From a virus: a stretch of 64,000 bases of DNA. The stretch covers positions 118,360-182,359 of IMG/VR virus record IMGVR_UViG_3300035696_000005. One strand, 5' to 3'. Made by a program: the position numbers and the translations under genes. Shown here piece after piece: positions 14,696 through 29,700 of this stretch. The notes under the pieces are model-generated. The model made no database searches, had not been told where the DNA came from, and saw only the letters and a program-made list of their open reading frames with translations. Positions within the stretch are counted from its first letter, which is position 1; every line of letters starts with the position of its first letter.

Positions 14696-14771
14696 TGGTG
14701 CCCGTGATGGGTACTGCCCCCAAAAGACGGCGGATTTTAAGTCCACCCGATATACTATTCTCTACACAGGC
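14696..14771 (-). tRNA. tRNA-Leu(TAA), short variable loop
   Basis: GTGGA-CTTAAAA-TCCGC; T-loop GGCAGTA; ACCA. Confidence 0.75.
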
Positions 14772-14775
14772 AAAC

Positions 14776-14849
14776 TGGCGTCGCTTAAGGGAGTTGAACC
14801 CTTCTTGTCCGACTGAGAATCGGAAGTCCTACCGATAGACGAAAGCGAC
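14776..14849 (-). tRNA. tRNA-Glu(CTC)
   Basis: TCCGA-TTCTCAG-TCGGA; TTCAACT; GCCA. Confidence 0.9.
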
Positions 14850-14850
14850 A

Positions 14851-15138: not shown

Positions 15139-15153
15139 TTGTCTATTATATCA

Positions 15154-15229
15154 TGGTGGACTACATGGGAATCGAACCCATCAAAAACTGATTGCAAATC
15201 AGCCTACTTCCCCAGCTGTTTCGTAGCCC
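15154..15229 (-). tRNA. tRNA-Ala(TGC)
   Basis: GCTGA-TTTGCAA-TCAGT; G3:U70 pair; TTCGATT; ACCA. Confidence 0.9.
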
Positions 15230-15238
15230 ATTGAAATT

Positions 15239-15285
15239 TGGCATTGGGGAGAGCCCGGCAACTAGGCCGTATGACTCTCCCCAAT
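15239..15285 (-). ncRNA. Minihelix-like hairpin ending in GCCA
   Basis: ATTGGGGAGAG/CTCTCCCCAAT 11-bp stem, apical CGGC/GCCG hairpin, 3' GCCA overhang. Confidence 0.4.
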
Positions 15286-15288
15286 CTT

Positions 15289-15471
15289 TTAGCCGAACAG
15301 AATTCGGCGCGCTTGAGTCAGCGTCTGAGCCGACATGAATTCGGCTTCCACTTTTTTCTCTTGCGCACGCTTCTTGTGAAGCGCTTTGTAGTTGGTCAGA
15401 CTACGAAATGGGCTTAACACCCATCTTTCCTTCCCGTCCTGGGTAAGGAACTTCCTCTTGATCTGGTTCAT
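15289..15471 (-). CDS. Small basic hypothetical protein, 60 aa
   Basis: ORF track; GAAGGAGG RBS located in a hairpin. Confidence 0.55.
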   Translation of the reverse strand: MNQIKRKFLTQDGKERWVLSPFRSLTNYKALHKKRAQEKKVEAEFMSAQTLTQARRILFG

Positions 15472-15573
15472 AACAGACCCTCCTTCAGCTTTTGAGCGAA
15501 GAAGAGGTCTAGAAAGGATCTTCCGTAGTCATAGGCAGATGATGCCTGATGATGTTTTCAAAATCAAATTAAA

Positions 15574-15648
15574 TGGCAGGGGATGAAGGTAGTGCGCCCT
15601 CTTCTGCTGGTTTGGAATCAGCCGTGTTACTTTTATCACTAATCCCCT
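15574..15648 (-). tRNA. tRNA-Trp(CCA)
   Basis: GCTGA-TTCCAAA-CCAGC; AGGGG acceptor; T-loop CGCACTA; GCCA. Confidence 0.8.
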
Positions 15649-15659
15649 ACTGGAAAAAC

Positions 15660-15734
15660 TGGGGTCGCGTACGGGTTCTGCCCCCGCCTGTTCACCTTGA
15701 AAGGATGATGACCTCACTAGAAGTCGAACGCGAC
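15660..15734 (-). tRNA. tRNA-Glu(TTC)
   Basis: TCATC-CTTTCAA-GGTGA; GTCGC acceptor like Glu(CTC); T-loop GGCAGAA. Confidence 0.8.
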
Positions 15735-15739
15735 AAACT

Positions 15740-15816
15740 TGGGGTGATCGACGGGAGTTGCACCCGCTTACCCTGCTTCACAGGCAGGTACCTCAGCTAC
15801 TTCGGTTTCAACCACC
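15740..15816 (-). tRNA. tRNA-His(GTG)
   Basis: CCTGC-CTGTGAA-GCAGG; encoded G-1 and C73. Confidence 0.85.
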
Positions 15817-15825
15817 ACTGGAACT

Positions 15826-15900
15826 TGGTCGCTACGGGGGCACTTGCATCCCCTTCAGCAGGATATGAATCTGCAGCTTTACTTTATAAGCTACGTAGCG
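15826..15900 (-). tRNA. tRNA with CAT anticodon (elongator Met or Ile2)
   Basis: GCAGA-TTCATAT-CCTGC; paired C1:G72; T-loop TGCAAGT. Confidence 0.75.
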
Positions 15901-15953
15901 AAATGAGCAATCATCAGCCGCCTTCTGCAGTTCGGCTGTATCTTCGCTGATGA

Positions 15954-16307
15954 TTACCACTTGGCTGCTTGTTCAGCAGCATGAAACTTTCGATGACAAT
16001 TTGCGCACAAGATGTCGCATTTTTTTAATTCAATTAGTATGCGTTCTTTGCTCGCGTGATGAGCCAGTAACTTTGACATTTCTGAATCTTTTTCTGATGG
16101 ATCTCGATGATGAAAATCCAGGCAAGCTCTGTCTGTCTCTCCGCATTTTTTGCATTTGATATTCGGCGTAATCTCAACGAACCACTGCCTAATTTCTCTT
16201 CTTCGTGCCTGATTTCTTGAGTGATAGGCTTCTTTGTTTTTGAGGTAATGTTTGCGCTGAGCTGTTCTTTGTTTTTTTGTATCTGAGTAAGGCATGGTTC
16301 GTATCAT
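15954..16307 (-). CDS. HNH-family endonuclease (paralog of 14204..14656 and 25180..25554)
   Basis: CKKCGE...LDFHH.DP..K...KCDILCANCH. Confidence 0.8.
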   Translation of the reverse strand: MIRTMPYSDTKKQRTAQRKHYLKNKEAYHSRNQARRREIRQWFVEITPNIKCKKCGETDRACLDFHHRDPSEKDSEMSKLLAHHASKERILIELKKCDILCANCHRKFHAAEQAAKW

Positions 16308-16342
16308 ACGCTATAGATATGAACTTTGTAAATTTAAAGGAA

Positions 16343-16407
16343 TCGGGGGAGGTGATTCGATACACCATCTCCGGCTTTCGCCGGGCTCTAACTTAAGCTA
16401 TCCCCCG
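16343..16407 (-). ncRNA. Anticodon-less tRNA mimic (GAAA tetraloop)
   Basis: Acceptor CGGGGGA/TCCCCCG, D-arm GCTT..GAGC, CCGGC-GAAA-GCCGG arm, GGTG-TATCGAAT-CACC arm; no encoded CCA. Confidence 0.65.
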
Positions 16408-16410
16408 TCA

Positions 16411-16482
16411 TGGATGCAGGTCCTAGGGATGCCCTAGGGTCTTCTGGTTATGAGCCAGACATGGTCTCTCCACTAACCTGCA
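16411..16482 (-). tRNA. tRNA with CAT anticodon (Met or Ile2)
   Basis: TCTGG-CTCATAA-CCAGA; TGCAGGT/ACCTGCA acceptor; T-loop GGCATCC. Confidence 0.7.
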
Positions 16483-16518
16483 AAATCTACTATGGCAAAT
16501 CTTGCCGCCTTTGTCAAA

Positions 16519-16591
16519 TGGTCCGCGCTCCGGTTCCGCCCCGGTCCCTAACTCTTATAAGGAGTTTGTTGTTCTACTCAACTAAACGCGG
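16519..16591 (-). tRNA. tRNA-Ile(TAT)
   Basis: AACTC-CTTATAA-GAGTT; T-loop GGCGGAA; ACCA. Confidence 0.75.
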
Positions 16592-16623
16592 ATGTATACT
16601 GAAAAAGACCATCTTGGAGATAT

Positions 16624-17565
16624 ATGAAAACAGAAAACTTCTATGTCATCGCAGTGATCAGCAACCCCATTCGTTTCAAAAGCCGCTACGCCCTCTATCA
16701 AAAATTTGAAGCAGAAGTCAAGGCCGCAGGAGCACAACTTCTGACTGTGGAGTGCGCGCTTGGAGACAGACCACACATGGTTACGGAGTCGAATAATCCG
16801 TGGCATCTTCAGCTCAGAACCTGGGACGAAATTTGGCATAAAGAAAACATGATCAATCTTGGGCTAGCACGCCTTCCTTCCAATTGGGAATACGTCGCTT
16901 GGATTGATGCCGATGTTTCTTTCATCCGAAAAGATTGGGTTCTTGAAACCATCCATCAACTTCAGCACTACATGGTTGTTCAAATGTGGGAGACCGCTAT
17001 TGATCTAGGACCAACCGGTAGCGCTCTTGCGACTCATCATTCGTTCATTTCTCAGTACATCAAGGGTAAACCTTATTGCTACGGGCGACCTGGCGGCTAC
17101 TACTATGAACAATGGCATCCAGGCTATGCTTGGGCAGCCAGGCGCGAAGCAATTGATCATCTGGGTGGCATGATTGATACCGCAATCTTGGGTGCTGGCG
17201 ATAACCATATGGCACACGCCCTGATCGGTATGCTCGATGGATCGATCGCAAAAGGTCTTCACCCAAACTACATCAAGCACCTGACGACGTGGCAAGCTCG
17301 TGCTGAACGACATGTTCGTAGAGATGTTGGCTTTGTTCCTGGAACGATCTGTCATTCGTGGCACGGTAAAAAAGTGGACCGTAAATATCATGATCGCTGG
17401 AAGATTCTTGTGAATCACCAGTATGATCCGGATCTTGATCTTAAGCGCGACTCTCAGGGTCTTTATCAGCTCGTGGATCACGGGACACTCAGAAGTTCTC
17501 GTTTTCGCGATGATCTTCGTAGATACTTCCGCGCAAGAAACGAAGACTCCATCGATCTAGAATAA
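16624..17565 (+). CDS. GT-A fold glycosyltransferase-like protein
   Basis: WHKENMINLG...YVAWIDADVSF (DxD), PGYAWAARRE, GAGD; 313 aa; antisense to the tRNA cluster. Confidence 0.65.
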   Translation: MKTENFYVIAVISNPIRFKSRYALYQKFEAEVKAAGAQLLTVECALGDRPHMVTESNNPWHLQLRTWDEIWHKENMINLGLARLPSNWEYVAWIDADVSFIRKDWVLETIHQLQHYMVVQMWETAIDLGPTGSALATHHSFISQYIKGKPYCYGRPGGYYYEQWHPGYAWAARREAIDHLGGMIDTAILGAGDNHMAHALIGMLDGSIAKGLHPNYIKHLTTWQARAERHVRRDVGFVPGTICHSWHGKKVDRKYHDRWKILVNHQYDPDLDLKRDSQGLYQLVDHGTLRSSRFRDDLRRYFRARNEDSIDLE

Positions 17566-17566
17566 A

Positions 17567-17641
17567 TGGTGCATCCCCACGGTACTGCCCCGTGTGCACT
17601 GCCGTGTAAAAGCAGCCGCTCACTTTTTGCTGTTGAGATGC
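17567..17641 (-). tRNA. tRNA-Val(TAC)
   Basis: CTGCT-TTTACAC-GGCAG; T-loop GGCAGTA; ACCA. Confidence 0.75.
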
Positions 17642-17642
17642 A

Positions 17643-17716
17643 TGGTAGCCCTACCAGGAATCGGACCTGGGTTTCTTCCATGTCACGGAAGCGCTCTTCC
17701 ATTGAGTTATAGGGCT
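17643..17716 (-). tRNA. tRNA-Val(GAC)
   Basis: CTTCC-GTGACAT-GGAAG; T-loop TCCGATT; ACCA. Confidence 0.8.
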
Positions 17717-17725
17717 ATAGGAAAC

Positions 17726-17799
17726 TGGTTGGCCTTCCCGGTACCGCCCCGAGTTCTTGCGCCTATCAAGCGCAGGCATCACTTTAATGCTTAAGGCCA
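17726..17799 (-). tRNA. tRNA-Ile(GAT)
   Basis: TGCGC-TTGATAG-GCGCA; T-loop GGCGGTA; ACCA. Confidence 0.8.
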
Positions 17800-17807
17800 G
17801 TCTTTTA

Positions 17808-17882
17808 TGGTGGGCCGCCCGAGGCTCGAACTCGGTTCTACGGATTAAGAGTCCGCTGTGTCACCCGGTACACTTGCGACCC
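17808..17882 (-). tRNA. tRNA-Lys(CTT)
   Basis: GCGGA-CTCTTAA-TCCGT; TTCGAGC; ACCA. Confidence 0.9.
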
Positions 17883-17905
17883 ACAAAAAATGGTATATGG
17901 TTTAG

Positions 17906-17979
17906 TGGTAGGCCCGAACGGTACTGCCCCGTTTTCCTTAGGTTAAAAGCCTAATGTATCACTTTAATACTTCGAGCCC
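17906..17979 (-). tRNA. tRNA-Lys(TTT)
   Basis: TTAGG-CTTTTAA-CCTAA; T-loop GGCAGTA; ACCA. Confidence 0.85.
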
Positions 17980-17981
17980 AC

Positions 17982-18056
17982 TGGAGCCTCCGGTGTGAAT
18001 TGCACACACGCTTTCTCTTTTGCAGAGAGATATCTCCCTAATTCGATCACGGAGGC
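17982..18056 (-). tRNA. tRNA-Cys(GCA)
   Basis: TCTCT-CTGCAAA-AGAGA; T-loop TGCAATT; TCCA. Confidence 0.85.
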
Positions 18057-18065
18057 ATAGAAAAT

Positions 18066-18141
18066 TGGAGCCAGCTCCGGCGTTCGCATCCGGTTTACCT
18101 GCTTACAAGACAGGAGTTTTACTACATAGAACTAAGCTGGC
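18066..18141 (-). tRNA. tRNA-Thr(TGT)
   Basis: CCTGT-CTTGTAA-GCAGG; T-loop TGCGAAC. Confidence 0.85.
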
Positions 18142-18142
18142 A

Positions 18143-18217
18143 TGGAGCCTCCACACGGACTTGCGCCGAGCTATCAGCTTTACGAAAGCTGCACATCGCT
18201 ATCTATGTTTTGAAGGC
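18143..18217 (-). tRNA. tRNA-Thr(CGT)
   Basis: CAGCT-TTCGTAA-AGCTG; T-loop CGCAAGT. Confidence 0.8.
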
Positions 18218-18226
18218 ATTGAAAAA

Positions 18227-18301
18227 TGGCGGAGCTAAGGGGAATTGAACCCCTGTTTTCCGATCGACAGTCGGATGTAATTGCCACTATACGATAGCTC
18301 C
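18227..18301 (-). tRNA. tRNA-Asp(GTC), first tRNA of cluster B
   Basis: TCCGA-CTGTCGA-TCGGA; TTCAATT; GCCA. Confidence 0.9.
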
Positions 18302-18327
18302 GTGGTAAATATGTTCATGCTCATGTT

Positions 18328-18401
18328 TGAAGTCACCGCTCAGGCGTCACCCTGACTTGGTTCTGAATATCCTGTAGGTTTCCCCACAGGGTCCAACTTC
18401 A
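18328..18401 (-). ncRNA. Candidate three-way-junction RNA
   Basis: TGAAGTT..ACC/GGTGACTTCA closing stem; CCTGTGGG-GAAA-CCTACAGG and TCAGG-GTGACG-CCTGA hairpins. Confidence 0.45.
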
Positions 18402-18428
18402 TCTACAAGCACTGCTTTTCAAATAGCT

Positions 18429-18469
18429 AAAAAACAAAGAGCCAGCCCTGGTTTCCCGGGGCTGGCTCT
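18429..18469 (-). terminator. Attenuator terminator B
   Basis: AGAGCCAGCCC..GGGCTGGCTCT-TTGTTTTTT; 5' arm complementary to the end of leader ORF B. Confidence 0.85.
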
Positions 18470-18496
18470 ATCAGTTCAAACTTTTTAGTTATCCCT

Positions 18497-18613
18497 TTAG
18501 ATCCAGCCCCTCTTAGTACCCGGTTCAATACCGGTGACCAAATGAGCGCACATATCCAGTCCACGCTTTGTGGCTGGTTTTGCTGCTCTGAGGTTGGACC
18601 ATAGGTTAAACAT
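18497..18613 (-). CDS. Leader peptide B, 38 aa (MFNLWSNLRAAKPATKRGLDMCAHLVTGIEPGTKRGWI)
   Basis: Manual translation; ATG 7 nt after a -10 box; last codons AGG GGC TGG ATC complementary to terminator 5' arm. Confidence 0.75.
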   Translation of the reverse strand: MFNLWSNLRAAKPATKRGLDMCAHLVTGIEPGTKRGWI

Positions 18614-18620
18614 AAGTTTA

Positions 18621-18649
18621 AGAATAATGGGGTTAGGAAGAAGTTGCAA
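18621..18649 (-). promoter_or_regulatory. Sigma70-like promoter of leader B / tRNA cluster B
   Basis: TTGCAA-17 nt-TATTCT-7 nt-ATG. Confidence 0.75.
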
Positions 18650-18668
18650 CATTTATTTTTGAATAGCT

Positions 18669-18705
18669 AAAAAAAGACCTGCTCTCCAGAAGAGCAGGTC
18701 TTTTT
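18669..18705 (-). terminator. Intrinsic terminator after AIPR-like gene
   Basis: AGACCTGCTCT..AGAGCAGGTCT with T-tracts. Confidence 0.85.
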
Positions 18706-18711
18706 ATTAGT

Positions 18712-20051
18712 TTAGGAGTTGGGCGACGACCGCACTTCGGAACGAATATTGTGCGTTACCGCGCCGTATTCATTAGTTTGCGTTACTCCTTTCTTATTCT
18801 TAACGCTTACCCGAACCTTGGTAATTTCTTCAGTTCGTGGAACGGATTTTTCAACCATGTCGTACAGTTTGTTCCAGATAGATTCTGTCCTGCCGAAAGC
18901 GTAAGTGTTCTGCTTACCCGTGATTTTTAGCAGAGCATAATCTAAGAGGCTTTGCAGAGTTTTATCCACAAACTCTTTAACGTCTTCGAACGGCATGATG
19001 AATTCTAGATCCTGCCCGTTTTCACCCAACCTAACCAACTGCCTGTATGCAGACAAGATAGGCATGCGAATCGAATACATCAAAAGATAATCGATTTCTC
19101 CATTAAGGAAGACAAGCTGTTTATACTTGGCCTTCTTTCCAGTAGTTTTATGGGCATATGTTCTAATCTGAGAAACCTCTCCATCGAATCTCTTACTGAG
19201 GTATCTGGAAGATAGTAACAGCACATAATCCATTAGAGCCGCAAACTGCGGTCTAATCTTTTCTCTGGCCCTCACCGCTTCCGGATCAGATTTAAACCTG
19301 TCGATAACAAGGTCATCTCCGCAAACGTTGATAAAAATTGGAGCCCTCCTCTTTCCAAGGTAGGTATGCCCATCCAATGCCAAATCGAGTTTAGCTAAAT
19401 CAACGCAAGACCAGGTTGTGTCTGGCTGGTTCTCTTTTCTTTCAATCTTATCTCTGGACGGGTGATTCTCGAAACTAACTTCAAAAGTATCGAATACGCC
19501 GCCAAGATAGGCAAAAGAAGACGATTTAACCTTGTTGCTTGAGTTAAGCCGAAAAGATGTCGACAAAAGATCTTCTCTAGTTTCAGTAAAGCCCTCAATC
19601 AACCAGATACTCTGTTCGACATTGAACGGTTATCTTTGGCATCCATCAGAGTTTTGTAAAGATTTTGACCGTTAACAATTCCTCCGATAGCCATTTCCCC
19701 CAAATTGCAGTCGAATGTGACAGTATCCCCGTCACTATCCAACTCTCCAATGAGGACATGGATGGCATTATTGCTTACCAGATGTGTACCCGCTTCTTTT
19801 GGAATATGTAGGGATTTTTCGATTCCTCGGATGACCTTGTTGCTTTCTGGGACAGGATATCTGGCATTAGAATCGTTTCTAACCACTTGGGCGTTTTTCA
19901 GATCCTTCAAGGTAGTTACGATCCATGTCACTCTCCTCACCCTATCCCACTCACTTTCCGGAAAAAATTCTAGAAGCTTCGTATCAGTATTCCGGATCGT
20001 TGATTCGTAAGTACTGCGATGCTTAACTTTGAGGGTAACGATAGTATTCAT
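18712..20051 (-). pseudogene. AIPR-like gene split by a -1 frameshift near 19599..19629
   Basis: ORF 19599..20051 has SNNAIHVL..GGIVNGQ; the overlapping frame is open from 19629 (PFNVEQSIWLIEG..RLNSSNKVK) and continues the AIPR-like pattern into 18712..19602. Confidence 0.55.
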
Positions 20052-20103
20052 AAATTTCTCCTTTAGCTTCTTATAACCATTTTTGTGGTATTTTTACTCT
20101 GGT

Positions 20104-20128
20104 AAAAAGACCCCCTCCATAGGGTCTT
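20104..20128 (-). terminator. Intrinsic terminator
   Basis: AGACCC..GGGTCT-T5. Confidence 0.55.
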
Positions 20129-20135
20129 TATCGAA

Positions 20136-20681
20136 CTAGATGTTCAAGTGCCCGTTGAAGTGCTTCTTCAGGTCTTTGATGGTGTACCTGATATGTTCCA
20201 TCGGCGGCTGATAACCAGGGCTGATCCAGTACTCGCTGATCGTAATTTCTTTACCGGTATACTTATTGAAGGTCCCGGAATCCCTACGATAGACAAGCCA
20301 GTACTTCTCAGTCCTGAGCGAAATCCTCCACCGAACCAAACCACCAACGAACTTCAGTTGAAGCTCATTGGCCTGATCTAGATTTCGCCCCGTAAGCATG
20401 TGGGTAGAGAAAGTCATTTCAGCTGTATCCCAAATGTGGTTTACATCCACGTGAGGGACAGCGCTTTTATGACCAACGAGGAAGCCAGCCTTAGTGAAAA
20501 TTAGTTTTCCGGCCATAGTTCCGTTACTGACCAGATCATCGAGTGCGACATCGAGGATGTCACAATCTTTCCCGAATCTACGAGCGCCAACTTCTGTCTT
20601 GGCTTTTTGAAGGATGTCGTAGCTTTCTGCATCCTTGGGATTAACCCAATAGTCTTTGTGAGTCACATCGAACAAGTACAT
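20136..20681 (-). CDS. Hypothetical protein, 181 aa
   Basis: ORF track; GGAGG RBS. Confidence 0.7.
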   Translation of the reverse strand: MYLFDVTHKDYWVNPKDAESYDILQKAKTEVGARRFGKDCDILDVALDDLVSNGTMAGKLIFTKAGFLVGHKSAVPHVDVNHIWDTAEMTFSTHMLTGRNLDQANELQLKFVGGLVRWRISLRTEKYWLVYRRDSGTFNKYTGKEITISEYWISPGYQPPMEHIRYTIKDLKKHFNGHLNI

Positions 20682-20761
20682 AATTACCTCCTATGTTCTT
20701 GCGAGAGTATTCGAACGACCTAGACCATCCAGGTTCCTTCGAAGCACTTCTCATTGTGTTG

Positions 20762-21001
20762 TTAATACGTTCTAGAGTAGTTCCCAAACCTCAAACGAGC
20801 TTTGGCTTCTCCAGCATCCCCGTAGTAATCGCTTTCGCGGCTATACGGACCACAGTCACAGAGAGTTCCGATGTAGTAACCATTACCGCATCCGATCACT
20901 GTGATCTCTGGAATTTTTTTGCAACAGCCGCATACTTTAGGTGCGCCCGTTGCCATAGTTGTGTTAACTTGCGTTTCCATACTTACTTTTCCAGCCACCA
21001 C
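20762..21001 (-). CDS. Small Cys-rich hypothetical protein
   Basis: CGCC, CGNG, CDCG motifs; start uncertain. Confidence 0.5.
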   Translation of the reverse strand: MVAGKVSMETQVNTTMATGAPKVCGCCKKIPEITVIGCGNGYYIGTLCDCGPYSRESDYYGDAGEAKARLRFGNYSRTY

Positions 21002-21238
21002 TTATTCCTATTCATACGTCCTCCTCAACGGCACCTAAGCCATGCCGTAACAAACATTATTCCCATTCCGACGGACACAGCCACCGACGTAAGCAGTATG
21101 TCCTTCCCGACTAGTATTACGATATTCATCTGACACCTTCCCGATAGTTAAAGAAAAAGCCATAAGCCTAGTTGCGAGGCTAAACTTATTTCTTTTCCTC
21201 ATTATTCTTATACCCGGATCATGAGTAATTTTGCCCGC

Positions 21239-21267
21239 TTGACGGCAGGCTTTTCCTAGGATAGATT
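21239..21267 (+). promoter_or_regulatory. Sigma70-like promoter for 21331 gene
   Basis: TTGACG-17 nt-TAGATT. Confidence 0.65.
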
Positions 21268-21330
21268 TGTCCTTGTCCCTAGCTCTTAAACCCGAGGAGT
21301 CGAGCTACCCTCATAACAAGGAGATCCCTC

Positions 21331-22305
21331 ATGATGGCCTACGAGTCGAATTTCGTCGTATCAATCGTTCACAACAACAAACCCCTCCGAGAATTCAATG
21401 AATGCGGTACCCGTGTTTGCCGAGTTCCGTTCAACTCAGAATATAAGATCAGACTGAAGAGCAAGACCTGGAAACGGGCTCTCGCTGTAATCACTATCGA
21501 CGGAACGGATGTTCTTTCGGGCGGTAAGGCTGTTCTTCTTTCCCCGTATCAAACGGTGGATCTTGAGCGCTTTGTCGACGACTTGGATGCTGGTCGTAAG
21601 TTCAAGTTCGTCTCTGTGGAAAAGGGTGCTATGACGGGTGAAGTTCAAGATCCGACTTCAGCAGAGAATGGCTGGATTCAGGTGGATGTCTATCCTGAGG
21701 TGGATGCGCCGAAAGTGTATCCCACTTCAGACACTGGAATTCCTATCTGCTCCACCAAAGACATGGGCAGTGTTTGTCGTAGTCGTGGCATGTCCACTAG
21801 TTTCTCTGTCGCTGCCGACAACGGAATCAATCTCAGCGGCGCTACGATGGATTTCATGAGCTGCTCAAATGAGTCTTTTGCTACCAATACTGTAGCTAAC
21901 ACTTTTTATACATCAGGGGCAGTCCCTACCCCCTGCTCTATAAGTGGTGGTGTATCTGAGGAGCGATATCGAGCCATTTCTGACAAAGGCGCTACTGCCG
22001 AAGGAACTCATTCCGGTCAACAGTTTAGACTGGAAACGAAGAGCTTCGAGGTGGAGGAAAAGCCTGTGTCGATCAAGATCCTTCTTAAGGGTCCTAAGAG
22101 TGATCTGCAACAAGGAGTGCCAGCTACCGTGCCCAACACGAAGCCGGTCATTGTCTCCTTCCGTGATGGCAAGTACTACGTCTACTTGAACGGTAAGCTT
22201 GTTGATGGAATCACTAGCTGCCAAATCACAGACGGGATGGTCCACATTACAGGACGTAACGGACTATCTATTCAGACGGCAGATTATATGTTGGATTCGC
22301 AATAA
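21331..22305 (+). CDS. Conserved large-phage hypothetical protein, 324 aa
   Basis: KPLREF..VPFNSEYKIRLK..ITIDGTDVL..LERF..KFKF; AAGGAG RBS; function unknown. Confidence 0.75.
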   Translation: MMAYESNFVVSIVHNNKPLREFNECGTRVCRVPFNSEYKIRLKSKTWKRALAVITIDGTDVLSGGKAVLLSPYQTVDLERFVDDLDAGRKFKFVSVEKGAMTGEVQDPTSAENGWIQVDVYPEVDAPKVYPTSDTGIPICSTKDMGSVCRSRGMSTSFSVAADNGINLSGATMDFMSCSNESFATNTVANTFYTSGAVPTPCSISGGVSEERYRAISDKGATAEGTHSGQQFRLETKSFEVEEKPVSIKILLKGPKSDLQQGVPATVPNTKPVIVSFRDGKYYVYLNGKLVDGITSCQITDGMVHITGRNGLSIQTADYMLDSQ

Positions 22306-22307
22306 TT

Positions 22308-22337
22308 AAAAAAGAGGGGCACCATTTGGTGCCCCTC
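22308..22337 (-). terminator. Terminator between convergent 21331 gene and Ro60
   Basis: GAGGGGCACCA..TGGTGCCCCTC-T6. Confidence 0.85.
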
Positions 22338-22341
22338 AATC

Positions 22342-23976
22342 TTACAACTCAACCGAATTAACAACTGATTCGACATCCATTCCAAGCGTACCTACAGCTC
22401 CGAATAAGGCTGGAGTGAGCGTGTTATACACAATCATGGAATCACAGTTTGGAACTGCCGACCAAGGATTTGAAGCTTGGTTGATCAGAATCAGCTTTGA
22501 ACGTGAATTGACATTCTTTTGATACTTCAAGAATGCCTGATCCAGCGGTGTTCCCTGATTTTGGGCTTCATCGGTGATGATGATGAACTTATCCACATGC
22601 TTATCTTCAGCCAACGCTTTTTCGATAATCATGGCCGGGTTGGTATAGCCAGCAGCATAAGGATATTCAAGTACCATCTTCATGTCGGTCTTACGGTTTC
22701 CAGTCCAGCGAGGAAATGCTGCAGCACCACGAGATGCCCCAACGGAGCTTCCTTCGAAATGAAGCCTGCTATTTTCAAACCAGCTAAACCGAACGTCTCT
22801 AGCTTTACCATAGAATGCGTAAGCAAAAACGTTAGCAACTAGATACGACCATTGGTCAGAGTTTCCAAGACCACCGCGCATTGAGCCTGAGCTGTCAACA
22901 CTGACTTCAATAACGTCATCAGCGATCCCATCGATTGGAGTGTCGAAAGAAGAAGCTAAAGCTTCAGCCTGGATTCCCTTGATCTGTGGATGACTCGTAT
23001 GAACGTAGCTCTTGACGATGTCCAGCGGATTCATCCTTCCGCGCACAATAGCTTCAGGAGAAAGCATCTCACGATACTTCTCGATCGCACCGGTGAGCTC
23101 GAATACGCCGTGCTCGATGAATGAACGAGTATTCAAAAGAAGACCTTGAGTACCGCAGCTCATCATCAATGCAAACCACCAGCGTGGGTTGCTGCAAGGG
23201 ACTGGCTTAAGCGTATCAAACGGAAGCTTATTCTCCAGGATGATTCGACCCACAGCATCCAAATCGAAGTTCGGACGCTGCGCCATCGAGAGCACCTGCT
23301 CGTATGCCTTCTGCTGTGTTCCGTAAGGAACACCCTTACGGGTTCCTTCCTGCCCAGGGAACACGTAATCAAGCAGCGGGTTATTCCAGTCCGGGTGAGT
23401 CAAGCGAAGGAGGATTCGCATGTCATCCTTGTACTGGATCGTATAGCGCTCAAGCTTCTCAGGGCTCCAGCTCTTCATGACCTTACCGACCCAGCCTTGC
23501 TGGCGGTAGCCGAGACCCTTCGTGTACTTCTTTTGCATCTCGACATATTCCCGAAGCTGCTTCGGGTGATAAGTCGAAAGAAGATCCACAATGACGTCCC
23601 TGTAGTCAGCACAGAAGTCCTTGTTTGCGGACAGCGCAATAACGCCAAGCTTAGGCGACATCTTGATATTGCTTCGACGAGCAAGCACAAGCGCCTTAAG
23701 CAGAAACAGAGGGTTGGTCTGTGCTGCTTCAGAGAACCTCTTTAGCATCTCGGAGGCTTGCTTATCTGCATCGCTGTAATACGTATTTCCAATCACACCG
23801 CACTGAGACATACGGAAAATATCACGAGCAAACGAAGGAGTGAATGCCGCGTATCCATGAGGATTGGTTGTGGTCGGAGTTTTTCCGCTTGCGTGCTTTT
23901 CCATAAGCTTTCCGCCACGGCTTGAAGCAGGCTTTGGTTCCCGGGTATTTCGAAATGCGTCGACGTTGTTTGCCAT
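22342..23976 (-). CDS. rsr: Ro60/Rsr: TROVE + vWA RNA-binding protein
   Basis: TROVE-type N-terminus (IGNTYY..NPLFLLKALVLARR), vWA MIDAS VDSSGSM, FIIITDE; AGGGAG RBS before ATG 23976; Y-like RNAs adjacent. Confidence 0.85.
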   Translation of the reverse strand: MANNVDAFRNTREPKPASSRGGKLMEKHASGKTPTTTNPHGYAAFTPSFARDIFRMSQCGVIGNTYYSDADKQASEMLKRFSEAAQTNPLFLLKALVLARRSNIKMSPKLGVIALSANKDFCADYRDVIVDLLSTYHPKQLREYVEMQKKYTKGLGYRQQGWVGKVMKSWSPEKLERYTIQYKDDMRILLRLTHPDWNNPLLDYVFPGQEGTRKGVPYGTQQKAYEQVLSMAQRPNFDLDAVGRIILENKLPFDTLKPVPCSNPRWWFALMMSCGTQGLLLNTRSFIEHGVFELTGAIEKYREMLSPEAIVRGRMNPLDIVKSYVHTSHPQIKGIQAEALASSFDTPIDGIADDVIEVSVDSSGSMRGGLGNSDQWSYLVANVFAYAFYGKARDVRFSWFENSRLHFEGSSVGASRGAAAFPRWTGNRKTDMKMVLEYPYAAGYTNPAMIIEKALAEDKHVDKFIIITDEAQNQGTPLDQAFLKYQKNVNSRSKLILINQASNPWSAVPNCDSMIVYNTLTPALFGAVGTLGMDVESVVNSVEL

Positions 23977-23990
23977 AAATCTCCCTACAT

Positions 23991-24038
23991 AAAAAAAGAG
24001 AGGGACATAGCTTGCACAATGCAAGGTGGCCCCTCTCT
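23991..24038 (-). terminator. Terminator between Y-like RNAs and Ro60 CDS
   Basis: AGAGAGGGGC..GTCCCTCTCT-T6 with inner TTGCA/TGCAA hairpin. Confidence 0.7.
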
Positions 24039-24049
24039 GAGTTGAAAGA

Positions 24050-24112
24050 GCCACTGTGAATTGTAGAACCGGTTTTTCGTTTCAAGTGATGAACGGTTCC
24101 ACGAAGAGTGGC
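24050..24112 (-). ncRNA. Y-like RNA 4
   Basis: GCCACT/AGTGGC outer stem; AACCGTTCATC..AAACCGGTT core. Confidence 0.65.
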
Positions 24113-24135
24113 GAACTTGGTACTTCAATTGTTTT

Positions 24136-24262
24136 ACTACTATAAACGGATCAACCGGTTTTTAGCGTCCTAGCCATTAGACGACCTAGACCAAGGTCTT
24201 GGGTGAGATTCGAACTCACATTTCCATCTTGTGTAGATGAACGGTTAATTAACCAGAGTAGT
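24136..24262 (-). ncRNA. yrlA: YrlA-like Y RNA 3 with circularly permuted tRNA module
   Basis: Same core; insert 24166..24219 = T-arm GTGAG-TTCGAAT-CTCAC, loop-closed acceptor CCAAGAC/GTCTAGG, D-arm GTCT-AATGGCT-AGGAC. Confidence 0.75.
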
Positions 24263-24280
24263 AAATTTTCAAACAACAAA

Positions 24281-24340
24281 GCTACTGTGAATCGGACAAC
24301 CGGTGTTCAGTGTATAGATGAACGGTTATCCAAGAGTAGC
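24281..24340 (-). ncRNA. Y-like RNA 2
   Basis: GCTACT/AGTAGC stem; AACCGTTCATC..CACCGGTT core. Confidence 0.65.
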
Positions 24341-24361
24341 GAACTTCAAAAACTTTTTGTG

Positions 24362-24430
24362 GGGAGCTACTGTGTTTTGATCAACCGGTTTTCATTTTTG
24401 CCGATGAACGGTTAATCGAGAGTAGCTCCC
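24362..24430 (-). ncRNA. Y-like RNA 1
   Basis: GGGAGCTACT/AGTAGCTCCC stem; AACCGTTCATC..AAACCGGTT core. Confidence 0.65.
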
Positions 24431-24436
24431 TCAACT

Positions 24437-24450
24437 TACTTATAACAGAG
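24437..24450 (-). promoter_or_regulatory. Promoter motif upstream of Y-like RNA 1
   Basis: CTCTGTTATAAGTA, identical to 5626..5639; TTGACT further upstream. Confidence 0.5.
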
Positions 24451-24486
24451 TACCGGAAGATTGTTCCTAGTCAACTCTTTTTTAAA

Positions 24487-24579
24487 TGGCGGAGAAAGCT
24501 GGACTCGAACCAGATCCGGTCAAAGCCGGACTCAGAGTTTAGCAAACTCGCTATGCCGCCCGAGCATAGTTCATTCTCC
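24487..24579 (-). tRNA. tRNA-Ser(GCT)
   Basis: GAGT-TTGCTAA-ACTC; long variable arm; GCCA. Confidence 0.9.
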
Positions 24580-24584
24580 AAATA

Positions 24585-24674
24585 TGGCGGAGGGTTACGG
24601 AGTCGAACCGTCACGCTTTCGCGTGTGGTGCCTGTTTTCAAGACAGGTAGTCGTCCACACAACACAAACCCTCC
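24585..24674 (-). tRNA. tRNA-Ser(TGA)
   Basis: CCTGT-CTTGAAA-ACAGG; long variable arm; GCCA. Confidence 0.9.
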
Positions 24675-24681
24675 AAACTTT

Positions 24682-24755
24682 TGGTTGGGCTACTCTGGAT
24701 CGAACAGAGGTTAACACCTTCAGAGAGTGCAGTCTTGCCACTAGACGATAGCCCA
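24682..24755 (-). tRNA. tRNA-Gln(CTG)
   Basis: GCACT-CTCTGAA-GGTGT; TGGGCTA acceptor; TTCGATC. Confidence 0.85.
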
Positions 24756-24763
24756 ACATAAAC

Positions 24764-24837
24764 TGGTAGGGGATACCCGTGCTGCCCGGGTGCGACAACT
24801 TTCAAAGAGTTGCAGGCTACTGTTACCTCAATCCCCA
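24764..24837 (-). tRNA. tRNA-Gln(TTG)
   Basis: CAACT-CTTTGAA-AGTTG; unpaired 1:72; T-loop GGCAGCA. Confidence 0.8.
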
Positions 24838-24849
24838 ACATCAAAACTA

Positions 24850-24925
24850 TGGTGCCGCGAATCCGGATCGAACGGATACCTCTTGCTCTTCAGGCGAGCG
24901 TGCAGACCAACTACACCATCCCGGC
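24850..24925 (-). tRNA. tRNA-Phe(GAA)
   Basis: CTCGC-CTGAAGA-GCAAG; TTCGATC; ACCA. Confidence 0.85.
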
Positions 24926-24937
24926 ACATTAAAATTT

Positions 24938-25024
24938 TGGTGCCCGCATAAGGAGTCGAACCTTATTGCCCCGAAGAGAACGCGTTTACAGCGCGCCGAG
25001 TTCACCGGAACTCTCACTGCAGGC
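24938..25024 (-). tRNA. tRNA-Tyr(GTA)
   Basis: CGCG-CTGTAAA-CGCG; long variable arm; ACCA. Confidence 0.9.
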
Positions 25025-25034
25025 ACATTAAACT

Positions 25035-25110
25035 TGGCGCATGGGTTGAGACTCGAACTCAACTTTCCCGAGTTAACAGCTCGGTTCCATCACCCGATGG
25101 ATACCCATGC
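25035..25110 (-). tRNA. tRNA-Asn(GTT) copy 1
   Basis: CCGAG-CTGTTAA-CTCGG; GCCA. Confidence 0.9.
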
Positions 25111-25111
25111 A

Positions 25112-25189
25112 TGGCTGCGGGAGCTGGGATCGAACCAGCCTCATTTCGCATTAACAGTGCGACGCACTCACCCTGAACGCTATCCCGCA
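25112..25189 (-). tRNA. tRNA-Asn(GTT) copy 2, first tRNA of cluster A
   Basis: TCGCA-CTGTTAA-TGCGA; GCCA. Confidence 0.85.
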
Positions 25190-25554
25190 ACATCTAACTT
25201 TTCATGCTCCTCTGCGTGACAATTCAAACACAGTAGGACACATTTCTTTGCTTCAGCCAACACAGCCTTGTAAGAGCGCGTAATTCCTTTATTCGATACT
25301 CCGAAATCTTTCTTACTAGGGTCCGTATGGTGAAAACTTAGTGCTCCGTTACATTTGTTATAACCACACTTAGTACATTTACCTCCAAACTCATTAAGAA
25401 GCATTTCTTTTACACGCCTTCGTCGTCGTGCAACTGCTTCTGACCTGCATCTTACGCAGCGGTAATGCTGCTCACACTTAACGAAAATAAAGCTAGTTTT
25501 TCCATGCTTGCTGCAAACTCGATCAATATACTTTGTGGGCATGTTGGTTATCAT
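25180..25554 (-). CDS. HNH-family endonuclease; stop inside tRNA-Asn
   Basis: GGKCTKCGY..ALSFHH.DP..KDF...KCVLLCLNCH; start region in GTTGGTTA/TAACCAAC hairpin. Confidence 0.8.
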   Translation of the reverse strand: MITNMPTKYIDRVCSKHGKTSFIFVKCEQHYRCVRCRSEAVARRRRRVKEMLLNEFGGKCTKCGYNKCNGALSFHHTDPSKKDFGVSNKGITRSYKAVLAEAKKCVLLCLNCHAEEHEKLDVAG

Positions 25555-25579
25555 AACACGTTAACCAACCTCCATAGCT

Positions 25580-25620
25580 AAAAACAAAAACCCCGGCTAA
25601 CTTTCGCTAGCCGGGGTTTT
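25580..25620 (-). terminator. Attenuator terminator A
   Basis: CCCCGGCTAGC-GAAA-GTTAGCCGGGG-TTTTTGTTTTT. Confidence 0.9.
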
Positions 25621-25643
25621 GAGTTCTTGTCTATTCGTAATCT

Positions 25644-25715
25644 TTAGACGCGAACGCTCCCCGACCAGCTTTGCTGGTTACTATTAAAATAGCTTGAGGA
25701 GAAGTTCTTAGTCAT
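25644..25715 (-). CDS. Leader peptide A, 23 aa (MTKNFSSSYFNSNQQSWSGSVRV)
   Basis: C-terminal part of ORF 25644..25865; ATG 7 nt after -10 box; GCTGGTCGGGG pairs with terminator 5' arm. Confidence 0.8.
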   Translation of the reverse strand: MTKNFSSSYFNSNQQSWSGSVRV

Positions 25716-25722
25716 AAATACG

Positions 25723-25751
25723 ATCCTAAGCGGGATTTTCCGTTTGTGCAA
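25723..25751 (-). promoter_or_regulatory. Sigma70-like promoter of leader A / tRNA cluster A
   Basis: TTGCAC-17 nt-TAGGAT-7 nt-ATG; same geometry as promoter B. Confidence 0.7.
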
Positions 25752-25980
25752 CAACTTTCTTTTGTGTGGGTCTAGGCTTCTTTTTCGGAGGCAAATACCC
25801 AAACCCATAAGCCGTATTACCGATACCGATGACCACCCAAGGACCCGGAGTTTCGCCGTAGTCAAGGAAGAGCTGCGCCTTGTGCGGGTTCGGAATGTTT
25901 TTCACCGCAACCTGAAATTGCGGTGCTCTTTTGTTTGTGAGCGCTTTCTCTGTGTTGATCGTAACGAGTTCTTTAGCCAT
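25726..25980 (-). CDS. Hypothetical protein (MAKELV...)
   Basis: GGAGG RBS before ATG 25980. Confidence 0.6.
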   Translation of the reverse strand: MAKELVTINTEKALTNKRAPQFQVAVKNIPNPHKAQLFLDYGETPGPWVVIGIGNTAYGFGYLPPKKKPRPTQKKVVAQTENPA

Positions 25981-26005
25981 GTGAATCCTCCACAAGGCTT
26001 ATAAC

Positions 26006-26197
26006 TTATTTTCGAGTTTTCTTGGGTGGCGGGTAATCTCGGGCTAGCGAGTATTTGTTGATCCAGTTTCTGAGAGTTCTGACACTGATACCGAGAAGCT
26101 CTGCCGCCTCTGTCCTATTTCCTTTGGTCTGTGTGAGTGCAGCTTCTGCAAGTTTCTTAAGTTGCTTATCGACGTTGAATGCGTTGTTGTTTGCCAT
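26006..26197 (-). CDS. Fis-family helix-turn-helix protein
   Basis: AALTQTKGNRTEAAELLGISVRTLRNWINKY. Confidence 0.85.
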   Translation of the reverse strand: MANNNAFNVDKQLKKLAEAALTQTKGNRTEAAELLGISVRTLRNWINKYSLARDYPPPKKTRK

Positions 26198-26487
26198 TAG
26201 TCCAAGTACCTCACTTCGGTACGCCCATCATGGCTGTGGAGCTTTTCAAGCTGCGCAACGCTGTGACAGAACTCCATGCTCTTTTCGACCGAGAGCCACT
26301 CAACGATTACGAAGCCACTCGGGAAGATAAGACCAGTTGCAATGTAGCCGCAACCGCTGTTTCCTGAAACGTCTTCTTTTCTGTAGAGGGCTATCTTTCG
26401 TGTAAGAGGGACTTCTTTTTCTGGGTTATGAAGGGAGCTAGCAATCTTACCTTTGGTTTTTGCCATAAGCCCAATATACCTCGGCAA
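26197..26487 (-). CDS. Conserved phage hypothetical protein (R..DVSG.SG.G..A.G..F..G...W..S..HSH.G.T)
   Basis: Motif recognised from widespread phage proteins; start uncertain. Confidence 0.65.
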   Translation of the reverse strand: MPRYIGLMAKTKGKIASSLHNPEKEVPLTRKIALYRKEDVSGNSGCGYIATGLIFPSGFVIVEWLSVEKSMEFCHSVAQLEKLHSHDGRTEVRYLD

Positions 26488-26507
26488 AACTTGCCTGTCA
26501 AAAGAGC

Positions 26508-26539
26508 TAAAAAAAGAGGGAGCCCCGAAGGGCTCCCTC
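26508..26539 (-). terminator. Intrinsic terminator
   Basis: GAGGGAGCCC-TTCG-GGGCTCCCTC-T7. Confidence 0.9.
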
Positions 26540-26753
26540 AGAAGGTGAATGTCACCTTTGTCCTCACCTCAGTCTCTTTGGCACCTTTGAAAAGCTTCTG
26601 CAACCTGTAGCCGTGTTGCTGCAGCATCTCAAGTCTAGTAATCACATCTTTCTTAGAGGCGATAGTCTCATAGTTAAGACTACCGTTCTCAACAGAATAG
26701 ATGAGCACATAGACGCCCGCATCTCGGGTAGTGTCGTTTGACTGAGTTTCCAT
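26538..26753 (-). CDS. Hypothetical protein, 71 aa
   Basis: RBS AAGGAGAATCACTATG. Confidence 0.7.
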   Translation of the reverse strand: METQSNDTTRDAGVYVLIYSVENGSLNYETIASKKDVITRLEMLQQHGYRLQKLFKGAKETEVRTKVTFTF

Positions 26754-26775
26754 AGTGATTCTCCTTACCCTTAGA

Positions 26776-29700
26776 TTACTCGTTCACGGCAATTTTTGCC
26801 ACAATATTTTGTGGCACTACCTCAAGCGAGGTTGTCGTGAGTTCTTTGGGGGAGATCTTGCTTGGAGTAAACCCAAGTGACTCAAGCTTAATTGCCCAGC
26901 AATAGTGCCTGTTTCCTTGGGGTGTGGTCACATACTTCGTATTGGAAGTGCTCTTGGGGTCGTGCATACCAGGAGGAATATGCCCATCCTCAAGAAGCTG
27001 TCTTCCAATATGATGCTTACTCTGTGACCAGCTCTTGGATTTGTTGAGATGGGTCTCGACTTCTCCGTGAGCGGTGCCCGGGTAGATATAAACTACATCA
27101 GGCGTTTTCTCACGATAAAAGCCAAGTGCCTTTGAGCTCTTGTGCTCCGAAGGATCGTGCTCGCCCCAATTGATAATATGGTAGCGGGCAGGATCTTGAA
27201 GAAGCTCTTTAATTGAGTCCAAGAAAAGAGCTGCGGCACGCTGAGAGCCTGCGTTAGAGATGATTGTCTCACGACAGATCTCAAGGTTCTTTAGATGCCT
27301 CGCACAGAATTCATCCTTTCGTTTGTCTGGAATTACTCCCTTATCAACGAGAAGATCCATGATGAGTCTAAAGCCCGTCATATTGAATGCCAGGTTCTCG
27401 GAGATGCGGTAGCTGTTCTCTTTGACACCGGCTTCTTTATTTCTTTGTTCGAAGTAGGCAAGATACTCGTTGTAGATTCTCCTGACTTCTTCTTCGGTCA
27501 TGTTGTACACGAACTGAATGAAGTAAGGGGTAAATCCGCAATAGTCAATTCGTCTGTCCCGAACTTTGTTTCCCTTCTCAACGTTCATGCAGTTTTTCCC
27601 TGCATCAACCATGATCATGCGAGAAACAACGCTTGCTTCTTCAAGGGGACAGTCTTCTCCGGTAGTAGCCACAAGGCTTCTCACCCGAGTCGTCTTGTCC
27701 CTAAGCTCCCCATGCCTCTGAAGCGCCTGCCGACCAGAACGATCGTAGGCATTCTGAATAAACTCCATCATCTGTTTGGTGTTGTGTTCATTCAAAGACT
27801 TCTTGAAGTCATCCATCACGAAGAATGCATCTCTGAATTTATGCGCAATCTGAAGCTTGGCTAGTCCAGTGCTCTTCATGCCAGTCAGGCTTGAGAAGTT
27901 ACCGTAAAAGCATTGCGCCATTTCAGCGATGAAGCTTTTTCCGTTTCCGAAGGAGCCCCCAATCCAAAGAACAGGGCTTTTCGTAAGCGGAATGTGAGAC
28001 ATGATGGAAGCAGCCATGGCGTGAGCAAAGAGCGCCATAGTTGCAATAGAAGAGTTACACTCGAAGTAATCCGTGATGATGTGAAGGGAAAGATCCTTGA
28101 ATTGGCTTTCGTCAATGATCTTGAAGTCAAGAGACTTGCAAGTATCGTCGCTGAACTCCAGCTCAAACTCATCGTTTGGACGAATATAGTCTTTGGTAAT
28201 AATCACCGAAGGAGAGATGTAAGCGTGCTCTCCTTTGATCATGTAGTGACCAAAGTCTTCGACCTTTTTGCGGATGACTTTCAAGTCCTTGCTGAATGTT
28301 CCGATACAGTTACGAATCGCGTTGAAGTCTTGCGTTTCGTACTGAACTTCTGTTCCAGCACGGTTCATGATGAACGTGAAAAATGCTTCCGAGCTTCTAA
28401 GCCATTCATCTGAGGCGGTCTTGAAAGTGTAGTGCTTTGTTCCAACATGAATAATGCCCTTGACCCACCTATGTTCGATGGTCTGTTCTTCTTTGGGATC
28501 ATCGAGATCTTTAGGCTTAATCAGCGTAATTTCCTCTTTGATCTCAATTGTGAAGTTGGTGATTGGAAGCGTCGACGGACTTCCATCCAGAGCTCTTGAA
28601 ATCTGAACGTATCCTCCGTCTTTTTGCATGTAATCTTTGCCGTGGAAAGAGAAGTGCGGGTGGGTCTTTTTATCGATCTTTACCGCCTCTTCTTTAATCT
28701 CTTTGGCAACGATCTTCCTAAGCTGCTTTGCCTCTTTCTCCGGCATGTACTTCTTTACGGCAACGTAGCTATGGAAAGCACCGCCATCTTCTGGATCGAG
28801 CTTGCCAGCTGATGCGTAGATTTCTTTCACTCGAACAGCCAGATCTTCTGGCTCCGGTTCTTTCTTTTCTCTAAAAGAAAACAAAGCATCCAAAGCCTTA
28901 GTGAGCTGATCAAGAGTCATGTATCCGCTGGCAAAGCGAACCGGACTAGGATCTTTCCACTCACTCTCCGGAAGATTATCTGGATTAACCACATACTGGT
29001 TATTCCGCATCTCTCCCGGCGGTATCTTCTTCATGCAGTGGTCCCGCTTAACCGGATGGGTACCGATTCGGCAAAGTCCTGATTCCTGCATTGCCTTACA
29101 AGTCCATGGATGTTGAGTTGATTCTAAGGCGTAATCGATCTCAGCCTCAATGCTGATGGATTTCCAGCGGTCTCTGACGATCTCAAGGCCGTTTTCCGTT
29201 GCAGCAGCAAAGGCAATAGATGCAGTCCGGTGATTGTGGTCGCCTTTAGCATCTGGTCCAATCTTGTACCTACCCGCTTCATCCTTTTCCCAGAACTGCT
29301 TTAGAGCTGGGCACCTCTCGACCACTTTCCAAAAGTCACCGCGTGGTGGAATGGGCTCTCGATTTTCCTTATCTGTTCCTGCGTTTGCAGCAGCCCTTCG
29401 ACTTCTGCTCACCGGAACATTCAGAACTTCGATTTTTTGCTCAGCAATCACCTTCTCCAATTGCTCAAGAGTGATCTCTTTGCAGTTCGTAAAGTAGGAC
29501 CACTGCTCATCTGTAGGGATTGGCTTTGCATCGTCGTCCACCCAACAGTTGAACCCCTCCTTAATCTTAGGCTCAATCATTGGGATCTTGATACCATTAC
29601 CAGGTTTTGCAGGATCGTAGTTCACCTGTTTCGGGAAAGTCTCAGGAATTTTCATCTCGATGTTTTCTTGATACCGAGCAGTGAATCCGACTTTCTCGTA

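Follow-up and report, generated by a model that had tools for sequence, protein, structure and literature searches.

The leader-peptide attenuators of enterobacteria (trpL, hisL, pheL, leuL, thrL and ilvL) share a short ORF rich in regulatory codons, a set of mutually exclusive anti-antiterminator, antiterminator and terminator structures, and a stop codon placed so that the terminating ribosome blocks the antiterminator. Some of them read more than one amino acid: thrL senses Thr and Ile, and ilvL senses Ile, Leu and Val. In the pheST operon of E. coli, a Phe-rich leader (pheM) places phenylalanyl-tRNA synthetase under attenuation by the supply of charged tRNA. In T-box RNAs no translation is involved: a specifier codon and the T-box sequence contact the uncharged tRNA directly. 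Leaderless attenuators are described in mycobacteria, where polycysteine short ORFs at the very start of AUG-first mRNAs are reported to control the downstream operon (bioRxiv 10.1101/834739).

Here we describe a phage locus, cassette A, located on the minus strand of the terminal 64 kb (64,000 nt, hereafter the window) of a 182,359-bp virus record rated complete (IMGVR_UViG_3300035696_000005). All defining features of classical leader-peptide attenuators that can be tested on sequence were found in it: a short ORF with a usable start directly 5' of the putatively regulated genes, an enrichment in this ORF of codons for the amino acids of those genes, an intrinsic terminator between leader and genes, an antiterminator that excludes the terminator and is maintained by compensatory change, and, in 6/6 phages, an anti-antiterminator within the leader ORF together with a stop codon placed to mask the 5' strand of the antiterminator. 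Like thrL and ilvL, cassette A would read several amino acids at once. Whereas the enterobacterial leaders regulate biosynthetic enzymes, it stands before tRNA genes, and it further differs from them in covering five amino acids and seven isoacceptors with 13 consecutive codons, in being phage-borne and in being probably leaderless. With pheST it would share the attenuation of a component of the decoding apparatus, but the target in pheST is a synthetase for one amino acid and here tRNA genes for five. As in T-boxes, the choice between terminator and antiterminator would be tied to tRNA charging; unlike in T-boxes, the reader would be a ribosome on an ORF. The mycobacterial polycysteine ORFs, as reported, have in common with cassette A a leaderless AUG start and consecutive regulatory codons, and differ from this phage-borne locus in using Cys only, in controlling cysteine-related protein genes and in being host-borne (bioRxiv 10.1101/834739).

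We searched the locus with Rfam models at E ≤ 1, which gave no match to any family at 25575-25760 (Trp_leader, His_leader, Leu_leader and Thr_leader included) and no match to the T-box model at 9000-27000; cassette A has no sequence relationship with the Rfam leader families. The full-text literature that we searched, with most subscription journals outside its coverage, held no description of attenuator control of tRNA genes, and a search on phage T5 tRNA genes and attenuation returned nothing relevant among titles and abstracts.

Cassette A in related phages

A BLAST search against cultured phages, using the DNA and the primase protein as queries, returned no relative. Cassette A neighbours a gene encoding this 1,148-aa primase, and contigs of related uncultured phages were reached through the homologues of the protein. 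Cassette A was found in five of these phages, with a primase identity of 54-65% (L003, 15358-15435; L004, 15048-15119; L005, 15584-15661; L134, 6947-7021; L150, 15074-15148). The six instances form a single lineage, and the match between leader codons and tRNAs accordingly counts as one evolutionary event, or two when cassette B (described below) is included.

Single-protein scans of IMG/VR, using the 84-aa protein encoded next to the cassette or the primase, found no close relatives, and DNA pattern scans of IMG/VR with the leader core as a query yielded chance matches or none. Profile scans of IMG/VR and of metagenomes added one new carrier of the cassette only, L134; the remoter relatives that they retrieved have no tRNAs near the primase. 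Two further relatives, L149 and L151, have reduced sets of Asn(/Ser) tRNAs and lack the leader, and are therefore unusable for assessing covariation between leader and tRNA content.

The leader ORF and its putative regulatory codons

The leader ORF (25715-25644, minus strand; ATG at 25715, TAA at 25646-25644) comprises 23 codons followed by TAA and encodes MTKNFSSSYFNSNQQSWSGSVRV. An earlier reading of the window from sequence only had proposed that codons 4-16 belong without exception to Asn, Phe, Ser, Tyr or Gln and are placed ahead of the matching tRNAs, and re-reading the minus strand at this site confirmed it: the 13-codon run (25668-25706) encodes N F S S S Y F N S N Q Q S. The codon usage reported for it also proved correct, with both Asn codons (AAC/AAT), both Phe codons (TTC/TTT) and both Gln codons (CAG/CAA) in the run, and five of the six Ser codons in the leader as a whole, TCT being the one absent. 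Tyr is represented in the run by one codon only, TAT.

Among the N/F/S/Y/Q runs found by six-frame translation of the genome (364,714 codons), it alone has at least 10 residues, the second-longest reaching 9 residues, and the number of runs of at least 13 residues expected by chance is 0.0027 per genome. The amino-acid set of the run is that of the next tRNA cluster, for 13 of the 13 codons, and the leader contains a cognate codon for each of the seven anticodons present in this cluster.

In all six phages, the leader starts with ATG, its frame stays open over 23-25 codons through several indels, and it terminates in an identical GUC-UAA-AG context. Asn, Phe, Ser, Tyr and Gln are all present in each of the six leaders. 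Up to the Gln pair, which is CAG then CAA in 6/6 and thus provides one codon per Gln isoacceptor, 11-13 of the 12-14 residues of the relatives' leaders belong to the N/F/S/Y/Q set; the remaining one or two residues (H, R, K or T) have no matching tRNA in the cluster. We also performed a crude scan for leaders, requiring a run of at least 5 residues drawn from the downstream tRNA set, which found cassette A only; cassette B escapes this criterion and needs a different one.

Putative promoter and transcript start

Immediately upstream of the leader ORF, on the minus strand, we identified a -35-like hexamer (TTGCAC, 25746-25751), preceded by an A-rich stretch, and a -10-like hexamer (TAGGAT, 25723-25728), which lies 7 nt 5' of the ATG and shares nucleotides with the stop codon that ends the 84-aa gene upstream. 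The same geometry (TTGnnn-17-TAnnnT-6/7-ATG with an A-rich upstream stretch) is found in 6/6 A cassettes and 2/2 B cassettes, and there is no conserved Shine-Dalgarno sequence across A and B cassettes. In the 182-kb genome, it occurs at 5 sites, against 0.7 expected from shuffled sequences, and all five sites start ORFs. This geometry, together with the lack of a conserved Shine-Dalgarno sequence, points to a leaderless transcript: judging from the sequence, transcription of leader A probably starts at the AUG.

Outside leaders A and B, the pattern TTG[AC][AC]N-17-TANNNT-6/7-ATG has three sites (window 26466 and 14656 (-), genome 41124 (-)), which open real-looking ORFs of 89, 150 or 192 aa; this suggests that the phage may have a small set of leaderless transcripts.

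Predicted mutually exclusive RNA structures

Downstream of the leader ORF lies a strong terminator (25616-25580, minus strand), whose G+C-rich stem of 11 bp is formed by segment 3, the 5' arm (25606-25616), and segment 4, the 3' arm (25601-25591), and is followed by a U5GU5 tract (25590-25580). With its GAAA loop, it is the capped terminator with U-tract that had been proposed for this site. The proposed antiterminator was likewise recovered: segment 2, its 5' strand (25659-25669), pairs as GCTGGTCGGGG (25669-25659) with segment 3, CCCCGGCTAGC (25616-25606), over 11 bp including two G-U pairs, so that the 5' arm of the terminator is wholly sequestered in the antiterminator form.

The third proposed helix, the hairpin ACCAGC-AAA-GCUGGU (25678-25664), is also present, but segment 2 is predicted to be held by a larger structure than this hairpin, namely a closed three-way junction. 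Its main stem, P1, pairs CUCCUC (25701-25696), the 5' strand of the anti-antiterminator, with GGGGAG (25662-25657), the GGGG of segment 2 (25662-25659) doubling as the start of the P1 3' strand. The two hairpins of the junction are P1a (25680-25693), located within the leader ORF and carrying compensatory changes in L004 and L150, and P1b (25664-25678), which is the ACCAGC hairpin. The closed junction is predicted in 6/6 phages, in each case with an outer stem between the 5' end and the stop region, the CUCCUC:GGGGAG stem and two internal hairpins. Run on a plain MAFFT alignment, RNAalifold recovered the junction helices and the terminator, with compensatory changes at 9 pairs, and the predicted fold of the region is far more stable than those of shuffled sequences (z = -5.05).

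The duplex between the leader and the terminator 5' arm has a predicted energy of -22.1 kcal/mol, better than 500/500 dinucleotide shuffles, and in each of the six phages the corresponding energy is better than that of 495-500 of 500 shuffles. To obtain the antiterminator fold, the RNA that a stalled ribosome would hold was masked and the transcript was folded up to the terminator loop. In these masked folds, segment 2 (GCUGG..GGGG) takes up 9-11 of the 9-11 nt of the terminator 5' arm in 6/6 phages, even though the arm has five different sequences among them. The arm variants are mainly transitions that keep a Watson-Crick or G-U pair to segment 2. All three strands covary at one position, the fifth when counted from the stem base: segments 2, 3 and 4 carry C, G and C respectively in the window, and U, A and U in L004, L005, L134 and L150, as would be expected of two helices that exclude each other. 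MAFFT misplaced a 1-nt indel in segment 2 and misaligned the terminator of L150, and antiterminator pairs were therefore taken from constrained folds of each sequence and not from alignment counts.

The GGGG of segment 2 is located 10-12 nt 5' of the stop codon in all six phages (12 nt in the window), where a ribosome at the stop codon would cover it. For partial transcripts, folding predicts an antiterminator that exceeds the closed form in stability, and in L150 (15074-15213) an antiterminator of 22 bp and about -48 kcal/mol has the lowest energy of all folds even when the leader is complete. It follows that termination must rely on folding kinetics or on the terminating ribosome, and according to these predictions termination in L150 must rely on them wholly. 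The codons of the run are made of the same nucleotides as the P1, P1a and P1b helices, so that part of their conservation is structural, and coding and structural constraints are not fully separable.

Every strong terminator of this phage family ends with a U-tract followed by AGCUAU, often then by UUUGAAAA; in the window, ends of the AGCUAU type are found at 25580-25575, 18435-18425, 18671-18660 and 26516-26507 (minus strand), and they occur in the relatives too. In some cassettes, a GCUUGUAGAU motif stands after the terminator tail and before the first tRNA.

The downstream tRNA cluster and the HNH gene

About 31 tRNA genes are encoded on the minus strand of the window, between positions ~7,400 (7376) and ~25,190 (25189). 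ARAGORN with default parameters detected 18 of them, and the others were found with Rfam and with relaxed ARAGORN parameters; the 13 genes missed by default include His, Trp, Ala, Cys, Ile, Thr, Lys(UUU), Gln(UUG) and Ser(GCU). Unusual (non-canonical) T loops are common among the tRNAs outside the ARAGORN defaults.

Cluster A (24491-25189, minus strand) consists of Asn(GUU) twice, Tyr(GUA), Phe(GAA), Gln(UUG), Gln(CUG), Ser(UGA) and Ser(GCU). All eight tRNAs that the sequence-only reading had listed behind the leader (two Asn, Tyr, Phe, two Gln and two Ser) are thus present, of which ARAGORN finds six. The two that it misses by default, Gln(UUG) (24760-24845, minus strand) and Ser(GCU) (24491-24579, minus strand), were recovered by relaxed ARAGORN, cloverleaf folding and homology with the Gln(UUG) genes of the relatives.

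Behind cassette A, the relatives carry a cluster of the same kind (Asn, Tyr, Phe, Gln, Gln, Ser), and while the gene 5' of the cassette varies among phages, the tRNA cluster 3' of it is constant. Only 6-31 nt separate the end of the U-tract from tRNA-Asn in L003, L004, L005 and L150. This proximity assigns the cassette to the tRNA cluster rather than to the upstream gene. No space for a σ70-type promoter was seen between the terminator and tRNA-Asn in these four relatives, a separate tRNA promoter was rejected for them on this ground, and their tRNAs would therefore depend on readthrough, the polymerase probably having to pass the terminator to reach them. To place a strong terminator between genes and the promoter that serves them is sensible only when the terminator is regulated.

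In the window, an HNH homing-endonuclease ORF of 124 aa (25554-25180, minus strand, 375 nt; PHROG 2255, E 1.6e-25), which the sequence-only reading had left unmentioned, sits between terminator A and the first tRNA-Asn. It is present at the junction of attenuator and tRNAs in L134 and absent from it in L003, L004, L005 and L150, and the gene is therefore an insertion. The HNH gene of L134 (7136-7480) has a strong promoter of its own (TTGACA-18-CATAAT), from which transcription would circumvent the switch; at the start of the HNH gene of the window there is a weak promoter-like site. Further HNH genes interrupt the tRNA array, for example at 13582-14118.

A second cassette of complementary composition

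Cassette B (18613-18429, minus strand; noted within the span 18429-18649), which is conserved in L004 (19571-19760) with covariation in the antiterminator, has a leader of 38 codons and the promoter-ATG geometry of cassette A. It also comprises a terminator, an antiterminator and a closed fold of the multibranch type. The last 31 residues of leader B contain none of N, F, S, Y and Q and all of the 15 other amino acids, a composition that is unique among 364,528 six-frame windows, and the tRNAs located 3' of cassette B carry exactly those 15 amino acids. In L004, the cassette B tRNAs form a single unbroken array. That the two leaders have complementary compositions and each stand before the matching tRNAs argues strongly against the composition being a by-product of structure.

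Five amino acids for cassette A and 15 for cassette B make up all 20. Chances seem to us about even that two complementary leaderless attenuators run the whole tRNA arsenal of this phage on demand, each switching on its own array at slow codons, and that together they sense the depletion of host tRNAs, caused for example by anticodon nucleases or by decay upon infection, and hence act as a regulated counter-defence.

Weak matches to the Rfam Thr_leader model were obtained at 18649-18771 (30-32 bits against a threshold of 55, E 0.01-0.035), on the terminator preceding cassette B, and probably reflect mere terminator-like sequence.

Proposed mechanism

From the sequence elements described above, the alternative pairings, and the conservation and covariation observed in them, we infer a transcription start, leader translation, ribosome stalling and a physiological trigger, which would act as follows. 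The sigma-70-type promoter would start the RNA at or beside the AUG, producing a leaderless leader mRNA, and the nascent leader would fold into the closed three-way junction, in which CUCCUC:GGGGAG and ACCAGC/GCUGGU lock segment 2. When translation is smooth, the ribosome would open the junction, reach the UAA and cover the GGGG located 12 nt upstream; with the GGGG covered, the terminator would form and transcription would end after ~135 nt. A ribosome stalled in the 13-codon run would instead hold the 5' half of the junction and leave segment 2 free to pair with the entire terminator 5' arm, in which case no terminator would form and the polymerase would go on to transcribe the HNH gene, followed by the eight tRNA genes whose amino acids are the five encoded in the run. 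This would amount to a feedback whereby the tRNA set is made when the charged tRNAs reading the run codons are scarce. Candidate triggers are host tRNA decay, cleavage by tRNA-targeting defences and a poor match to the host tRNA pool.

Relative to the A-site codon, a ribosome covers roughly 15 nt on its trailing side and 12-13 nt on its leading side. With this footprint, CUCCUC would be held and segment 2 entirely free during a stall at codons 4-12, and a stall at codons 13-16 would cover the GCUGGU portion of segment 2, with CGGGG still free to invade the base of the terminator stem. The sequence-only reading had proposed that stalling covers segment 1, frees segment 2 and allows readthrough. 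At the level of sequence features, which are conserved with compensatory changes in five relatives, this proposal stands; what changes is segment 1, which corresponds to the 5' half of the three-way junction and not to ACCAGC alone.

We are highly confident that cassette A is a ribosome-read terminator/antiterminator switch controlling the tRNA cluster, and we consider it probable, at a clearly lower level of confidence, that it is in full a leader-peptide attenuator that would respond to the supply of the five cognate aminoacyl-tRNAs.

Alternative explanations

The switch might be real and read by ribosomes and yet report general translation status, such as ribosome availability or the coupling of transcription and translation, the N/F/S/Y/Q content being a by-product of A/U-rich sequence and of the CUCC and CCAGC helices. 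Such a reading would account for run codons that coincide with the nucleotides of P1, P1a and P1b, for an antiterminator that is favoured in partial transcripts without a stalled ribosome (and in L150 at full length), and for the tolerance of the relatives to residues outside the set. However, any sequence can build helices, and yet the run, unique in the genome, spells exactly the five amino acids of the next cluster; these five are kept in 6/6 leaders, and cassette B, complementary in composition, stands before the complementary tRNAs. We therefore regard a sensor of general status as unlikely. A free-standing small gene, giving rise to a small RNA of ~135 nt, a 23-aa peptide or both, with an independent function, is less likely still. 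Promoter, ORF and terminator do make up a complete unit with a very stable fold (z = -5.05), and terminated attenuator RNAs and leader peptides are reported to be able to act in trans (PMC6614838, PMC7298713). The tRNAs would then be expressed by leak-through or from an unseen promoter, while four relatives show no visible room for a σ70-type promoter before their tRNAs, and both the pairing of the leader with the entire terminator arm (six phages, five arm sequences) and the constant distance between GGGG and stop codon would be left unexplained. A role in trans could exist in addition to attenuation.

The cassette lies at the end of an upstream operon (26466-25726, minus strand) that includes the 84-aa gene, and its hairpin could in principle be the ordinary terminator of this operon followed by a chance ORF, or a switch serving the HNH gene. 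The hairpin is indeed the first terminator after the 84-aa gene, and the HNH ORF is the first gene behind it in the window. Among the phages, however, the upstream gene varies while cassette and tRNA cluster stay together, and the HNH gene is absent from this place in four relatives; a chance ORF is moreover hard to reconcile with a run expected 0.0027 times per genome and with a frame kept across indels. These comparative data largely refute both versions, to which we give very little credence.

Implications and neighbouring genes

The usual view of phage tRNA genes is that of constitutive cargo, serving to correct codon bias or to make up for tRNAs that host defences have destroyed. If cassette A operates as proposed, the phage would gauge decoding speed and make tRNAs only at need, so that phage gene regulation would be connected, directly and in a testable way, to tRNA-targeting immunity (or host tRNA decay). 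Classical attenuation would thereby be widened from biosynthetic genes to the tRNAs themselves, and the cassette would constitute a compact natural sensor of several aminoacyl-tRNAs simultaneously. Very short ORFs adjoining phage tRNA clusters merit annotation.

Two further observations concern the surroundings of the tRNA genes. A tRNA with a CUA anticodon (amber suppressor-like) is encoded just beyond the window, at genome positions 114918-114995. Just 3' of cluster A, a 570-aa protein with a Ro60 vWA domain (PF25045, E 5e-7) is encoded at 22342-24054 (-), and the corresponding neighbourhood contains RtcB in L003 and an RNA ligase in L151, which makes this region rich in RNA-repair functions.
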